Virus record (IMG/VR): IMGVR_UViG_2778261667_000001
From: a virus
Lineage: Duplodnaviria > Heunggongvirae > Uroviricota > Caudoviricetes
DNA length: 7,140 bases
Strand: one strand, 5' to 3'
Within the stretch, counting starts at the first letter, position 1. Each line of letters starts with the position of its first letter. Below are positions 1 through 5,342 of the stretch, one piece after another. The position numbers and the translations under genes are program-made. The notes under the pieces are model-generated. The model was not told the origin of the DNA and made no database searches. It saw only the letters and a list, made by a program, of their open reading frames with translations.

Positions 1-133
1 GAGTAAAGGATCGATATGTGTTTTTTTATCATCAAATTTAGAAAAGTCTGCTTAAAAACCACCTTGTGTAACGTAAAGCCCCGTCAGCAATGCATTGCCC
101 ATCTGTGCACAAAGGAAAAATATTCCTAAATTT

Positions 134-167
134 CTAACTTTAGATAATTGGCATTATTTAAAGTTAG
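134..167. other. lox-like recombination site: 13-bp inverted arms flanking an 8-bp asymmetric spacer
   Basis: Seen in sequence: CTAACTTTAGATA (134-146), spacer ATTGGCAT (147-154), TATTTAAAGTTAG (155-167). The arms are inverted repeats matching at 12 of 13 positions. The 13+8+13 architecture is that of P1 loxP, and the arm matches the loxP arm ATAACTTCGTATA at 9 of 13 positions. It lies 152 bp upstream of the Cre-like gene, as loxP lies just upstream of cre in P1. Confidence 0.55.
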
Positions 168-175
168 GTTATAAT
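148..175 (+). promoter_or_regulatory. Candidate sigma70 promoter (-35 TTGGCA, 16-bp spacer, -10 TATAAT) overlapping the lox-like site
   Basis: Seen in sequence: TTGGCA at 148-153 (5/6 to TTGACA) and TATAAT at 170-175 (6/6), spaced 16 bp, oriented toward the recombinase gene at 319. The -35 sits inside the lox-like spacer and left edge of the right arm. Confidence 0.45.
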
Positions 176-318
176 CATGTGTAGATGAACAGTGTTGACA
201 TCACTAAAAATACGTGCATCGAATCAAAGGCTTGAATTTTGAAAATTAACTTATAGCTACCCTGTCATTTTTATATTTTTCGCGTAACGTCATCTGTATA
301 TAGAGGTTAAATAGTTTC

Positions 319-1347
319 ATGAGTGAATTAATTATCTCTGGCAGTTCCGGTGGTTTCCTGCGCAACATTGGCAAAGAGTACCAGGAGGCCGCAGAAAACT
401 TTATGCGGTTCATGAATGACCAGGGGGCTTATGCGCCGAATACTCTGCGCGACCTCCGGTTGGTGTTTCACTCCTGGGCGCGATGGTGTCACGCTCGCCA
501 GCTCGCCTGGTTCCCGATCTCACCAGAGATGGCCCGCGAGTATTTTCTTCAACTGCATGATGCCGATCTGGCTTCGACCACCATTGATAAGCACTACGCC
601 ATGCTGAATATGCTGCTTTCGCATTGTGGCCTTCCACCACTTTCGGATGATAAAAGTGTTTCTCTGGCTATGCGGCGCATCCGGCGAGAAGCAGCAACTG
701 AAAAAGGTGAACGAACAGGCCAGGCTATACCGCTGCGGTGGGACGACCTGAAACTGCTCGACGTCCTGTTGTCCAGGTCTGAACGGCTGGTAGATCTGCG
801 CAACCGGGCTTTTCTCTTTGTTGCATACAACACACTGATGCGTATGTCTGAAATCTCGCGAATTCGCGTAGGAGATCTGGATCAAACAGGTGACACTGTC
901 ACGCTACATATTTCACACACGAAGACAATAACGACCGCTGCCGGGCTTGATAAGGTGCTTTCTCGTCGCACTACCGCTGTACTGAATGACTGGCTGGAGG
1001 CTTCCGGGCTTCGTGAACATCCTGACGCGGTGCTGTTCCCGCCGATACACCGTAGCAATAAGGCCAGGATCACGATAACGCCCCTTACTGCACCTGCAAT
1101 GGAGAAAATATTCAGCGATGCCTGGGTGTTGCTGAATAAAAGAGATGCCACGCCGAACAAAGGAAGATACCGGACGTGGACAGGCCATAGTGCTCGTGTC
1201 GGGGCCGCTATCGATATGGCTGAAAAGCAGGTGTCTATGGTGGAGATCATGCAGGAAGGAACCTGGAAGAAACCGGAAACACTTATGCGGTATCTGCGCC
1301 GTGGCGGCGTGTCTGTGGGGGCTAATAGCCGCCTGATGGATTCGTAA
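319..1347 (+). CDS. Cre-family tyrosine site-specific recombinase
   Basis: The 342-aa ORF is nearly the same length as P1 Cre (343 aa) and aligns by eye along its whole length. Shared blocks include SWARWC, WFP..PE, LNML, VSLAMRRIRRE, RNRAFLFVAYNTLMRMSEISRIRVGDL, HTKT, WTGHSARVGAAIDMA, EIMQEGTW and LMRYLRR. Counterparts of Cre catalytic residues R173, K201, H289, R292, W315 and Y324 are all present. GAGG at 303-306 is a possible RBS. Confidence 0.9.
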   Translation: MSELIISGSSGGFLRNIGKEYQEAAENFMRFMNDQGAYAPNTLRDLRLVFHSWARWCHARQLAWFPISPEMAREYFLQLHDADLASTTIDKHYAMLNMLLSHCGLPPLSDDKSVSLAMRRIRREAATEKGERTGQAIPLRWDDLKLLDVLLSRSERLVDLRNRAFLFVAYNTLMRMSEISRIRVGDLDQTGDTVTLHISHTKTITTAAGLDKVLSRRTTAVLNDWLEASGLREHPDAVLFPPIHRSNKARITITPLTAPAMEKIFSDAWVLLNKRDATPNKGRYRTWTGHSARVGAAIDMAEKQVSMVEIMQEGTWKKPETLMRYLRRGGVSVGANSRLMDS

Positions 1348-1408
1348 ATTAAATTTCTAACATATCTTTTTAGATTGATATCTTTGCTGTAAAGTACCCT
1401 CGCCTATT

Positions 1409-1765
1409 TTGGAGGGTGCTTTGCAGAGTCAAATCACGGAATCAAGACGCTTCACGGTGGACGGTTACACCGTAACCTTCGCCGCTGGTGTTAAGAACAG
1501 TCATGCTGTCGTTGTATTCGGCATCATGACCGGGCTTGAGGCCGTCCCTGTATTTACCCTCGAAAAAAACTGGCGAAATCTGGAGGAAGCGGAAAGCTAT
1601 GTCCGGAAAGTAACCATCATTGCCGCCGAAAAACTCCTGGCCCACTATCAGGAAAATTATCGCACTATGGTCGAGAAAATTAATCTCGCTTTCACTCGCC
1701 CCACTACAGGCTTCATCGCCCCGGAGACTAATACAGGTCGCTATCCTGCAAGGGGTCGTCGGTGA
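1409..1765 (+). CDS. Hypothetical protein (about 114-118 aa, start codon uncertain)
   Basis: Intact ORF whose stop overlaps the next gene's GTG start (GTGA at 1762-1765). GGAGG at 1411-1415 sits 5 nt before an in-frame TTG at 1421, so the real start may be TTG 1421 or GTG 1457 rather than TTG 1409. No recognisable family. Confidence 0.5.
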   Translation: MEGALQSQITESRRFTVDGYTVTFAAGVKNSHAVVVFGIMTGLEAVPVFTLEKNWRNLEEAESYVRKVTIIAAEKLLAHYQENYRTMVEKINLAFTRPTTGFIAPETNTGRYPARGRR

Positions 1766-2238
1766 AAAATTATTACCCATCTCTGAATTGTTACCCGTCT
1801 TCGTATCCGGAATTGTCCGGGAAGCTGTTATCTCTTTTGGCTAAATCACCAACTGAATGGTTTAAGCCAGTCGTTATCAATCCACACTTCCTGGATTACG
1901 GATCTGTTCGCACTCGTAACGAACTCAAAAACCTGCTGGCGCATGGATTCATTCGACACCGTGCCGGGAAAGGCTATCAGTTAGCGATTTCGCCAGAAGA
2001 GGCCGTGCGGCTATTCGCATATCGTGACAGCCAGACAAAAGCACGGGTAATAGCTCAAATACTTCATAACGGCAGCACCTATGCCCGCCAGTTTGGCGGC
2101 GACACGTCGCAGTTCTTGCGGGCTGTGCGATCGCTGGAAGAACAAGGAGTTATTGAAAGTTCCTGTCTTCCTGTTCCTACCGTTCCACATATCAAACGTC
2201 GGGTTTACACCTTCACGCAGAGAGCTAAAAAACAATGA
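1762..2238 (+). CDS. Hypothetical protein, possible winged-helix DNA-binding protein
   Basis: 158-aa ORF with a GTG start overlapping the upstream stop and a stop overlapping the downstream ATG (ATGA at 2235-2238). Segments such as ELKNLLAHGFIRHRAGKGYQLAISPEEAVRLF and QFLRAVRSLEEQGVIES look like winged-helix recognition regions; this is inference from composition only. Confidence 0.55.
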   Translation: MKNYYPSLNCYPSSYPELSGKLLSLLAKSPTEWFKPVVINPHFLDYGSVRTRNELKNLLAHGFIRHRAGKGYQLAISPEEAVRLFAYRDSQTKARVIAQILHNGSTYARQFGGDTSQFLRAVRSLEEQGVIESSCLPVPTVPHIKRRVYTFTQRAKKQ

Positions 2239-2729
2239 TTTACGTAAAAGTGAAACGCCTACATCCGGAAGCAAAACTTCCAGCTTATGCCACTGCCGGA
2301 TCGGCGGCGATGGATTTTGAGGCTGTTGAAATAACACCGTGCGTCGATAGCAATGGTGCAATTTCCTCAAGCTGGTGGGTGCATACCGGGCTGGCTATGG
2401 AGATCCCGCCCGGCTGGTGTCTGAAACTCTATCCGCGTTCCGGATTGGGCTGCAAAAAACATACTCGCTTGGCTAACTGCGTAGGAATTATCGACTCCGA
2501 TTATCGCGGTGAAATCATGGCAAAACTGATTACTGATCCAGGCGGTGAAGGCGTTTGCCTCAAGCCGGGGATGGCGGTCATGCAAGGCATTTTTGAGCGT
2601 GTTGAACCGGTATCGCTGGTAGAAGTTGATGAACTCGATGAAACAGAACGAGGTGCTGGTGGCTTTGGTAGCACATCGGAAGGCCGCGTTGAAATCAAGC
2701 GTACACCGCTTCAGTACGCAAAGTTTTAA
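2235..2729 (+). CDS. dut: dUTP diphosphatase (trimeric dUTPase family)
   Basis: Matches conserved dUTPase motifs when compared by eye with E. coli Dut: PAYATAGSAAMDF (motif I), PRSGLG (motif II), GIIDSDYRGE (motif III) and RGAGGFGSTS (motif V). Motif V is followed by a short extra tail (EGRVEIKRTPLQYAKF). Start overlaps the upstream stop. Confidence 0.88.
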   Translation: MIYVKVKRLHPEAKLPAYATAGSAAMDFEAVEITPCVDSNGAISSSWWVHTGLAMEIPPGWCLKLYPRSGLGCKKHTRLANCVGIIDSDYRGEIMAKLITDPGGEGVCLKPGMAVMQGIFERVEPVSLVEVDELDETERGAGGFGSTSEGRVEIKRTPLQYAKF

Positions 2730-2743
2730 GTAGAGGAAGGATT

Positions 2744-3406
2744 ATGGCCAGCACTTTTCAGGTGTTCCCCAAATACAAATGCCACAGCATCATTCGGGCA
2801 TCGAAAATCAAAGATATTGTTATTGTCGGCAAAGCTTATGCGCCCATTTTTGGCAGCATCGAAGTCGTGGAGCCAAAAGGAATGACGCTTCGTGTTGATG
2901 GTGTGTTCTTGGAAAAGTTCCGACCGCAAATAGGAGGATATCTCGTCACTGCTGAAAATGGTTATCTGGTCTATGTGCCAGAGAAAGCATTTGAAAAATG
3001 CTATAGCCGGGTTAACGACGCCTCCGAAAATGGGGTATCGCTCAGCATTGAAGGTCACAATGGGGTGACATTCATTACAGCCAGGGACGTAACTATTTCT
3101 GCTGGCGGTATCGCTACTCTACAAGAAGAAATCGACCTTGAAGCAGCCGACTTTTCTGACGCGCTGATGTGGATGAAGGATGGCAAGAAAGTTGCTCGAC
3201 GCGGGTGGAACGGCGAAGACCAATTCTGCTGGCTGGTTCCTGAAGGACAGTACCCGGCACGAATGGAAGCCATTAAGGGATATTTCCCCGGCGACCTCGT
3301 TCCGTATGGTGCTTATTTCGCCTTAAAAAATGCACAAGGTGTAGTTGTTCCGTGGGTGCCTTCAGTTGGCGACCTGCTGGCCTGTGACTGGTTTGTTGTG
3401 GAGTGA
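2744..3406 (+). CDS. Two-domain hypothetical protein: unknown N-terminal domain fused to a C-terminal DUF2829-like (Tad2-type) domain
   Basis: 220-aa ORF with a good RBS (GGAAGGA at 2732-2738, ATG at 2744). The C-terminal ~80 aa (about 3161..3403) read ALMWMKDGKKVARRGWNG...PYGAYFALKNAQGVVVPWVPSVGDLLACDWFVVE. This matches the pattern I recall for small phage DUF2829 proteins (GKKV.R.GW near the start, D.LA.DW at the end). The N-terminal ~140 aa is unrecognised. Confidence 0.75.
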   Translation: MASTFQVFPKYKCHSIIRASKIKDIVIVGKAYAPIFGSIEVVEPKGMTLRVDGVFLEKFRPQIGGYLVTAENGYLVYVPEKAFEKCYSRVNDASENGVSLSIEGHNGVTFITARDVTISAGGIATLQEEIDLEAADFSDALMWMKDGKKVARRGWNGEDQFCWLVPEGQYPARMEAIKGYFPGDLVPYGAYFALKNAQGVVVPWVPSVGDLLACDWFVVE

Positions 3407-3412
3407 TTTAAC

Positions 3413-4219
3413 GTGGAAAATACCAAGAACATTCAATATCGCCTGCGTAACGGCCTGCTGGTGGATGTTAACGCTGACATGTCTCTGCCGCTCGACACGA
3501 TTGAACGCACTATCATGGCGTATCTTGGCTTTAATGAAGAGCTGAATGAAGAGCATGGCGTAGCCATATGGAGCGATGCAGACAACGGCGCTCGCCGTTA
3601 TATCACTGCCAGAGGCAAAGACTACTCTCTGGAAGAACTGTTTACCCTTGCGCAGTCTTTCGAATGTGTAGCATTGGATCTGTTTAATGATCCTGCTATA
3701 GCGCAACGACTTATCCGCGAGCTTGGGCTGTCCGTTACCCCAATCATCTTTAGAAATGGCAGCTTGACTGGCACATGGCGCGTAGAACGCATCTCAAACT
3801 ACCTTCCATATAACCGACAGTTAAATGGAGTAATCTCCGGCGTTAATCAGCCCGTAGCGTGTGAAAATGTAAACCTAGTTGTCGCTGTTTTGGCAACCGC
3901 ATGTCGCGTTATTGGTTTGACTAAACAGGCATTTATTCATTTCCCAAATGGTGCAGATGGTAGCGCAGAGATTATCGCGTGTGATTTCGAATTTACCTGG
4001 ATGCTACGAGAATATCTGGACAAAACAGTATTCCGTGCCGAAGAACTGGATATGTATATCACGTCAACGATTCCTGATGATGTGCGAGCTGAAGCAATCG
4101 CTACAGCCAGGGCTAAATGCCGTGCGGCGATTGCAGAACAGGCCAAAGAAGAACAGTCCGATGAAGTCGCGGCAGATGTGGAAGCAGAGGTAGCGGAGGA
4201 TGCTGATGCTGACGCCTAA
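3413..4219 (+). CDS. Hypothetical protein with a strongly acidic C-terminal tail
   Basis: 268-aa ORF. The first start codon in frame is GTG at 3413, two codons after the upstream TGA and in the same frame, with no obvious SD, so the start is uncertain. The last ~30 aa (EQAKEEQSDEVAADVEAEVAEDADADA) are very acidic. The 3' end overlaps the next gene by 20 nt. Confidence 0.65.
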   Translation: MENTKNIQYRLRNGLLVDVNADMSLPLDTIERTIMAYLGFNEELNEEHGVAIWSDADNGARRYITARGKDYSLEELFTLAQSFECVALDLFNDPAIAQRLIRELGLSVTPIIFRNGSLTGTWRVERISNYLPYNRQLNGVISGVNQPVACENVNLVVAVLATACRVIGLTKQAFIHFPNGADGSAEIIACDFEFTWMLREYLDKTVFRAEELDMYITSTIPDDVRAEAIATARAKCRAAIAEQAKEEQSDEVAADVEAEVAEDADADA

Positions 4220-5306
4220 AAACATCACCGAATTACCAGAGTGGAGAGAGCTGGTAAGCAAATATAGCCATGACTGGGCATTAGCAGCAGAAGAGTTGAT
4301 GGGTGTTAAGTTAACCCACCAGCAAAAGCTAATTGTTGAGGCGATTCAACAAAAAGGTTCAGCAGTCAGCGTCACCACTCCTGAAGGGATAGGCCAAAAG
4401 ACGGTTATGGCTATAATTAGTATTCTTTATACAATCCTGATGCCTGAGTCTAAAACGGTCATTGTTTCCCCAAAGTTCTATAATTGTCGCAGGCAAGTTA
4501 TCCAATACATAAGTACGTATTGGGATAGAGTCAGTAACAGAATCCCATTGCTGGGAGAATATTTTAAAGTCGACGGAAACGGCATCACTCATCGTTACCG
4601 GGAATATTGGGGCTGCGAAATTAAGCCATATCACCGAAATTATGAGGAAGGTTTCGGTGGATATTATGCTGAACATCTTTTAATCATTGTTACGGAGGCG
4701 GCTCTTGCTGGCGATCGGCTATTCAGCATGTTAAGAGCATCGTTAGTAAGTGACGATTCACGTATACTTTTAATGTCCGCTCCTTCAGAGGAGGAGCATG
4801 GACACTTTTACGATTCCCATCATGGTCGTGCAAAATCTGAAGAAAATCCATGTGGTATTTATACAGCCATCAAGTTGAACGCAGAAGATACCCCCATTAT
4901 TTCTCAAGGTTATCTTGATAACATTGCAGAAATATATGGTGGTAAAAATAGCGATTACTACCGTCGTATGGTTCTTGGTGAGTTCCCTGGTATTCGGGAG
5001 GCTGTTCTTGAATCAGATATGCCGAAAACAATGCGCTTTACGATGCATGATGGTAGTGAATGGACAATGCCATTACTAGTGATAGCCCGGCATCATGCAC
5101 AGCACCACGCCAAAAAACATGGCGTTACAACATTAGAGTGGTTGAAATCGCACACCATTCCACTCTTCACTGCAGATCACAATGCTATCGTTGAGTGGGC
5201 AAAAACAATTCCGTGGGAGAATGTCGCTGAATACGCCAACATGCTAAAACCGCCGAAAGACAGGCAAGAAATTAGCTGGCTGACAGCAGAAAAAATCATC
5301 GAGTGA
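4200..5306 (+). CDS. Terminase-large-subunit-like ASCE ATPase domain protein (no nuclease domain, divergent Walker motifs)
   Basis: 368-aa ORF; ATG 4206 is the more likely start because GGAGG at 4195-4199 sits 6 nt upstream of it. Motif order and spacing fit a terminase ATPase domain: Walker A-like PEGIGQKT (aa 61-68), Walker B-like LLIIVTE (aa 160-166), coupling motif-like LLMSAPS (aa 190-196), and YYRRMVLGEFPG near aa 253-264. The Gly before the Walker A Lys is Q and the Walker B Asp is T. The remaining ~100 aa are too short for an RNaseH-like nuclease domain and show no acidic triad. Confidence 0.7.
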   Translation: MLMLTPKNITELPEWRELVSKYSHDWALAAEELMGVKLTHQQKLIVEAIQQKGSAVSVTTPEGIGQKTVMAIISILYTILMPESKTVIVSPKFYNCRRQVIQYISTYWDRVSNRIPLLGEYFKVDGNGITHRYREYWGCEIKPYHRNYEEGFGGYYAEHLLIIVTEAALAGDRLFSMLRASLVSDDSRILLMSAPSEEEHGHFYDSHHGRAKSEENPCGIYTAIKLNAEDTPIISQGYLDNIAEIYGGKNSDYYRRMVLGEFPGIREAVLESDMPKTMRFTMHDGSEWTMPLLVIARHHAQHHAKKHGVTTLEWLKSHTIPLFTADHNAIVEWAKTIPWENVAEYANMLKPPKDRQEISWLTAEKIIE

Positions 5307-5310
5307 TAGT

Positions 5311-5342
5311 AAAAAGCCCGCCTGGTTGAGCGGGCTTTTTTA
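5311..5342. terminator. Bidirectional Rho-independent terminator
   Basis: Seen in sequence: AAAAA-GCCCGC-ctggttga-GCGGGC-TTTTTT. A 6-bp GC stem with an 8-nt loop is flanked by an A-tract and a T-tract, 5 nt after the stop of the 4200..5306 gene, between convergent blocks. Confidence 0.75.

Follow-up and report, generated by a model that had tools for sequence, protein, structure and literature searches.

The resolvase of Tn3 is the classical case of autoregulation through an overlap between recombination site and promoter, and in the cer site of ColE1 a sigma-70 promoter, Pcer, lies inside the site of a tyrosine recombinase (Xer), with an activity that depends on the state of this site. The product of Pcer is a small checkpoint RNA (Rcd) and not the recombinase; the promoter is active in plasmid multimers and needs accessory proteins. 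The Dre/rox pair of phage D6, which reportedly goes back to work by Sauer and McDermott in 2004, is a widely used genome-engineering tool, and the native control of dre is undescribed in the searchable literature. A documented example of control through the site is provided by the tyrosine recombinase TnpI of Tn5401, the expression of which is modulated by binding of TnpI to its site, where promoters are located (PMC7157771); TnpI and its irs site form the closest documented precedent for the control logic considered here. In phage P1, whose Cre is the best-studied relative and for which we used the annotation of the cre regulatory region in NC_005856 (Dam sites and the promoters pR1-pR3, equivalent to P3cre-P1cre), no promoter is annotated inside lox and the nearest promoter of cre starts 87 nt beyond the arm. 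These cre promoters are weak, non-consensus and well downstream of lox, and cra separates lox from cre; lox is traversed leftwards by transcription from P2coi, a promoter under LexA control. The D6 clade has neither cra nor the P2coi arrangement, and presents instead a predicted promoter that is embedded in rox.

The DNA analysed here (the window, a stretch of 7140 bp) is, judging from its sequence relationships, part of a D6-like E. coli phage-plasmid carrying a Dre/rox module. Most of its length is about 94% identical to non-mobilizable E. coli plasmids of about 90 kb, and phage D6 (GenBank AY753669, MF356679), which has the same system, also matches. The gene order is that of D6: a divergent c1 repressor gene, then rox, dre, two small ORFs and dut. 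A repeat search found an inverted repeat at 134-148 and 153-167, with 15-nt arms matching at 93% and 4 nt between them, which alignment to the D6 record, where the rox crossover site is annotated at 4909-4940, identified as rox (134..167, not assigned to either strand). The published 32-bp site, with two 14-bp inverted repeats around a 4-bp spacer, corresponds to 135-166, the inverted repeat being one base longer on each side, and 31 of these 32 bases are identical in D6; the sole change, from A to G at position 143 in the left arm, is found again in many relatives. As in D6, the site lies 152 nt before the ATG of dre, a plus-strand ORF (319..1347) for a Cre-family tyrosine recombinase of 342 aa that is 99% identical to D6 Dre and matches the Pfam family Phage_integrase (PF00589). 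Its residues R175, H290, R293, W316 and Y325 are invariant in the alignment with relatives and agree with the active-site residues given for Dre (PMC4777119), the gene adjacent to rox thus encoding a Dre orthologue with the catalytic R-H-R-W-Y set. A preliminary description of the same DNA had spoken of a lox-like site and a recombinase; both are indeed present, and what it missed is that they are a known pair, the rox of D6 with one base changed and Dre. Of 5426 complete E. coli genomes, 101 have the rox-dre control region (120-330 of the window), in every case as a single plasmid-borne copy.

The left flanks of rox in D6 and in the window are unrelated, so that the element is a mosaic joined at rox. 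Among the relatives (loci L086-L117), at least four unrelated types of left flank (corresponding to window positions 1-133) occur with different types of right flank (134 onward), and one locus (L093) combines a left flank of the window type with a right flank of the SJ46 type. Many plasmid matches to the window start exactly at position 131. The G143 variant of the left arm is mostly found with the left flank of the window, and pEF-4 and pFUJ80155 carry it with other flanks. Exchange by Dre between phage-plasmids residing in the same cell would yield such a mosaic of flanks.

Superimposed on this site, a consensus scan of both strands found the predicted -35 hexamer TTGGCA (148..153, five of six consensus positions) and the predicted -10 hexamer TATAAT (170..175, six of six), both on the plus strand and separated by 16 nt (154..169), the pair amounting to 11 of 12 consensus matches with its TATAAT 143 nt before the ATG of dre. 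Reading and scanning the sequence thus bear out the coordinates, the gap and the direction towards the recombinase gene that had been given in the preliminary description. Its placement of the -35 inside an 8-bp spacer holds in a lox-style reading of 13-8-13 (spacer ATTGGCAT, 147-154) and fails in the published 14-4-14 format of rox, where the hexamer takes one base from the end of the left arm, runs through the 4-bp spacer TGGC and finishes on the base that opens the right arm. The -10 does not abut the right arm directly, as had been claimed, since a gap of 2-3 nt (G168/T169, or G167-T169) comes between; the 16-nt promoter spacer consists of 13 nt of the right rox arm and a variable 3-nt linker. 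Standard sigma-70 geometry would place the start of transcription 6-9 nt after the -10, at 181..184 of the plus strand, and from there to the ATG at 319 the distance is about 135-138 nt, in agreement with the leader of some 135 nt proposed earlier.

How exceptional is this motif? Counting both strands, only two promoter-like matches are present in the 7140 bp, the other one reaching 9/12, and the site overlapping rox is the only strong sigma-70-like site in the window, with a weight-matrix score of 13.4 bits that is the highest on either strand. In a near-identical plasmid containing the complete c1-dre intergenic region of 385 nt, the rox motif is again the sole consensus match, and the other candidates in this region reach at most 9.8 bits, no more than the 9.9 bits that shuffled sequences attain on average with their best site. 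A dinucleotide shuffle of the window contains on average 0.16 matches of at least 11/12, and one of the 318-nt intergenic region 0.027, counting both strands, while 13.4 bits are reached by 1.35% of the shuffles of the full 385-nt region. The sequence statistics are by themselves moderate, with 1-3% of shuffles equalling the motif. The hexamers nevertheless resemble TTGACA and TATAAT at a distance within the 16-18 nt of sigma-70 promoters, and they point, on the right strand and from the right position, at a gene without another evident source of transcription: dre needs a promoter of its own in the intergenic region because the upstream c1 is divergent and supplies no read-through. For a leftward promoter through rox of the P2coi type, the best minus-strand scores are 6-9 bits, which is the level of chance.

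Conservation within the D6 clade adds a different kind of evidence. The comparison of the rox-dre interval covered D6, eight plasmids (selected to cover 74-85% identity in the region) and 32 viral contigs, with a collected set of 39 sequences, 34 of which are distinct. All 34 have an unchanged TATAAT, even the one with a Dre of only 70% identity, whereas 20 of the 22 neighbouring non-arm columns vary (from the arm to position 194, leaving out the hexamer). The 3-nt linker between arm and hexamer reads GGT, GGC, AGC, GTA or TCA among the relatives, and the 19 columns after TATAAT, up to 194, are mostly variable. The only indel seen in the linker is an insertion of 1 nt in one relative, which changes the spacing from 16 to a still optimal 17 nt. 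In the most distant member, that with the 70% identical Dre, the leader diverges straight after the hexamer and the sequence still reads AGGTTATAAT. In heterologous hosts, recombination requires no more than the minimal 32-bp rox, and many different spacers work with Dre (PMC4957104, PMC4777119); hence the flanking TATAAT is not needed for recombination, and the simplest reading is that the -10 is under a constraint independent of it.

The -35 does not share this invariance. Most sequences of the D6 clade have TTGGCA, but the natural variants TTAGTA, TTAGCA, TGGGGA and TTGGAG also occur, and these four cut the promoter score to 7.4-11 bits. TTGGCA itself also forms the spacer in several sites from Pantoea in which no -10 follows at a fitting distance, and its likeness to a -35 element could therefore be incidental. 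This pattern suggests selection on the -10, whereas part of the -35 match may be accidental. The variants are at the same time variants of the rox spacer (TAGT, TAGC and GGGG, as well as TTGGAG in the six-base reading, at the equivalent of 148-153 in L080, L083, L092/L151, L104/L137 and L148), each of them altering the predicted -35, and relative to canonical rox they would probably behave as heterospecific sites. With a match of 11/12, an invariant -10, a spacing of 16-17 nt, a divergent c1 and no other candidate above chance, the near-consensus sigma-70 promoter of the preliminary description is supported, and it is likely, on these comparisons, that rox overlaps a genuine promoter of dre.

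In regulatory terms, this arrangement raises a question: What would become of the promoter once Dre has bound its site? The best explanation of the locus, to which we assign a probability of about one half, is a Dre/rox module in which a sigma-70 promoter of dre is interleaved with rox and silenced by Dre occupancy. The crossover spacer would double as the -35 (TTGGCA), the right Dre-binding arm plus 3 nt would provide the 16-nt promoter spacer, and the -10 would stand just outside the arm. Transcription would start near 181-184, leaving a leader of about 137 nt before dre, and may run on across the co-directional gene block as far as about 5306. The footprint of RNA polymerase would fall at about 127-202, and two Dre monomers would sit on the arms at 134-167. 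With a start at about 182, these arms would span from about -49 to -16 with the -35 between them, so that the predicted promoter of the recombinase gene overlaps the sites of the recombinase itself. Since polymerase and Dre cannot occupy overlapping DNA together, the two would be mutually exclusive, an occupied rox would be a silent promoter, and the outcome would be negative autoregulation, which we infer from the geometry and consider reasonable. Naive incoming DNA, free of Dre, would then give a burst of expression that ends as Dre accumulates. Moreover, recombination partners share the spacer, and the crossover would rebuild the same -35 while the right arm and the -10 remain with dre; for this reason the promoter would survive exchanges of the left flank.

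This proposed interleaving has recognisable counterparts. Tn5401 TnpI/irs and the serine TnpR/res systems of Tn3 and gamma-delta likewise have the gene just downstream of the site and promoter elements within the site, but accessory subsites carry much of the regulation in Tn5401 and Tn3/gamma-delta, whereas rox is a minimal two-arm site with a spacer serving as the predicted -35. Pcer of ColE1 is similar in being a sigma-70 promoter embedded in a tyrosine-recombinase site, and differs in its product, in its relation to multimers and in its accessory proteins. Neither of the two GenBank records of D6 (AY753669, MF356679) annotates a promoter in or next to rox. Within the searchable full text, outside of which the original D6 and P1 genome papers fall, we met with no paper that connects either rox or Dre with a bacterial promoter, native or cryptic, and the searchable literature yielded no transcript start or reporter data for the rox promoter. 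The control logic is therefore classical and the Dre/rox system known, but for Dre/rox itself the promoter overlap seems to be undescribed.

An alternative that is doubtful, though not negligible, accepts the promoter as real and denies that its occupancy by Dre has any useful regulatory effect: the promoter would be constitutive or controlled otherwise, its overlap with rox would come from a compact intergenic region, and it would serve dre together with the downstream co-directional genes for dUTPase, the Tad2-like protein and others. The conservation of the -10 supports the function of a promoter and is silent on repression, while variation is tolerated in the -35, the element that Dre would cover. 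The organisation of the locus also fits, with co-directional ORFs extending from 319 to 5306 and the first terminator-like site outside an ORF, a hairpin at 5320-5335, ending the block. However, both arms lie within -49 to -16, where simultaneous binding of Dre and polymerase is sterically hard to picture, and related recombinases with overlapping sites do control their own genes (PMC7157771).

The block downstream of dre deserves some description. The dUTPase gene (2235-2729) is followed by a plus-strand ORF of 220 aa (2744-3406) with a C-terminal Tad2-like domain (Thoeris anti-defence 2, PF11195, E = 3e-22), in the same co-directional series as dre. Right after the dre stop, at 1348-1362, the sequence ATTAAATTTCTAACA is nearly invariant among relatives despite divergent surroundings; it shares the 12-mer TAAATTTCTAAC with 127-138, the left edge of rox in the window, and the exact 8-mer TTTCTAAC is present twice in the window versus 0.26 expected. 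This element at 1348-1362 may be a regulatory site. A hairpin at 1393-1420 (AGTACCCTC...GAGGGTGCT) coincides in part with the Shine-Dalgarno sequence of the ORF that follows dre, and relatives keep a stem at the equivalent position with another sequence (GTACGCC...GGGGGTAC).

The second alternative, about as doubtful, holds that the rox motif is not a working promoter and that transcription of dre comes from weak, non-consensus promoters located downstream of it, which would be homologous to those of the P1 cre region, with TATAAT kept for some other reason. The candidates are the hexamer pair TTGACA (195-200)-18-TCGAAT (219-224), on the plus strand at 195..224 and conserved in the close D6 clade, and the GAAAAT block at 241-246. 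In P1 and the D6 clade the recombinases are homologous, the homologous site is also located upstream of the gene, and the leaders are partly homologous (blocks TTTGATCAAGG and TTTCGCGTAGCG). In favour of the downstream promoters, TCGAATCAAAGG aligns with the -35 region TTTGATCAAGG of the P1 promoter pR1/P3cre, the experimentally mapped P1 promoters are also poor matches to the consensus, and the leader islands homologous to the P1 cre region are conserved in the D6 clade; within the close D6 clade, TTGACA and TCGAATCAA are nearly invariant around a variable spacer. Yet TCGAAT lacks the key A at the second position of a -10, the 9.8 bits of the pair equal the mean best score of shuffled sequence, and both hexamers are lost in the 70% relative that retains TATAAT. 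Nor is another role for TATAAT evident, since the 3-nt gap separating it from the arm varies and recombination has no need of it. Weak promoters of the P1 type might, all the same, transcribe dre alone or in addition to the one at rox.

The predicted 5' leader of dre itself (182..318, plus strand) has a Shine-Dalgarno GAGG at 303-306 and holds, by alignment, sequence islands in common with the cre regulatory region of P1. Several further ideas about the region were considered and rejected. An RNA structure behind the conserved islands of the 137-nt leader finds no backing in RNAalifold (-4.4 kcal/mol, with zero compensatory pairs), and the leader matches no Rfam family. A leader peptide, encoded by a 16-codon ORF at 186-236, is discounted by the missing start codon in relatives of the pMUB type. 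The loss of a pR1-type promoter in the D6 clade by a deletion of about 22 nt is contradicted by a collinear alignment, in which TCGAATCAAAGG and GAAAAT correspond to the -35 and -10 regions of pR1. A search for the consensus of the P1 C1 operator, ATTGCTCTAATAAATTT, gave no match at up to three mismatches.

Another feature of these upstream regions is a pair of inverted 8-mers, CGCTACGT and ACGTAGCG, with starts exactly 44 nt apart, which recurs ahead of Cre-family genes in 11 lineages with mutual protein identities of only 40-55% (L084 117-173, which is P1, L155 1050-1106, L002 2394-2450 and eight other lineages). The window has a degenerate form of it at about 255-288, and the 5' copy of P1 includes the pR1 -10. 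No covariation between the two 8-mers is seen across the 11 lineages, which favours two protein-binding sites over an RNA hairpin.

Finally, the notion that an AT-rich recombinase site and an AT-rich flank spell a functionless promoter by pure chance, which could appeal to the 32% G+C of the intergenic region, to the intrinsically promoter-like nature of AT-rich lox-type sites, whose arms hold TATAAT-like strings in both orientations, and to the 1-3% of shuffles that score as high, is unlikely and receives very little credence from us because of the conservation pattern, with six of six -10 columns invariant among variable neighbours and a motif that is kept at 70% protein identity in the correct strand, position and spacing.

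Does the interleaving of promoter and site that we favour for Dre/rox extend to other members of the Cre family? We examined for promoters 58 Panto-like loci (about 45% identity to Dre) that have a recognisable lox-like site upstream. In 24 of them, the best promoter between the site and the ATG starts with a -35 that is at most 2 nt from the edge of the gene-side arm, with typical forms such as ATGACA-17-TATGAT and AGGACA-17-TATCAT, often accompanied by several GATC sites. A lineage at 51-53% identity has TGCTATGAT, with an extended -10, located 3 nt after the 12-nt arm core that was used in the scan. Among 78 representatives, promoters overlapping the site score 8.9 bits towards the gene versus 6.8 bits in mirror image (Wilcoxon p ~1e-9), a p-value that overstates independence given that the sequences are related, and the comparisons across the family in general are not phylogenetically independent. 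These data suggest that site and promoter overlap repeatedly across the Cre family, the register differing from case to case and P1 being the exception. A metagenome scan for more diverged rox sites returned random AT-rich matches only, seven of them partly symmetric and none of them rox.

The Panto-like loci present additional features. Immediately beyond the gene-side arm, where a promoter adjoins the site, many of them (within L002-L075, from Pantoea, Rahnella, Mixta, Erwinia and their relatives) show a cluster of 2-4 GATC (Dam) sites around this promoter, in the form AGGATCC...GGATCCnGGTATGAT. These clusters recall the annotated Dam sites in the cre regulatory region of P1. Several Pantoea sites have arms of loxP type (ACTTCGTATAA) with different spacers.

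If the promoter of dre is indeed built into rox, this would give a simple account of how a potentially harmful recombinase is kept low and self-limited and is yet quickly produced on entry. Native rox with about 10 nt of its right flank should then act as a strong bacterial promoter, which matters for constructs carrying the native flanks. We would generalise further only at low probability, to the view that interleaving of promoter and site is a design principle of the Cre-family modules of phage-plasmids, giving a burst of recombinase on naive DNA and a shut-off by occupancy after circularisation. Were this true, the burst in the D6 clade might include the downstream dUTPase and the Tad2-like anti-defence gene, and the natural switching of spacers, which leads to heterospecific sites, would also reset the expression of the recombinase, because the -35 is the crossover spacer.
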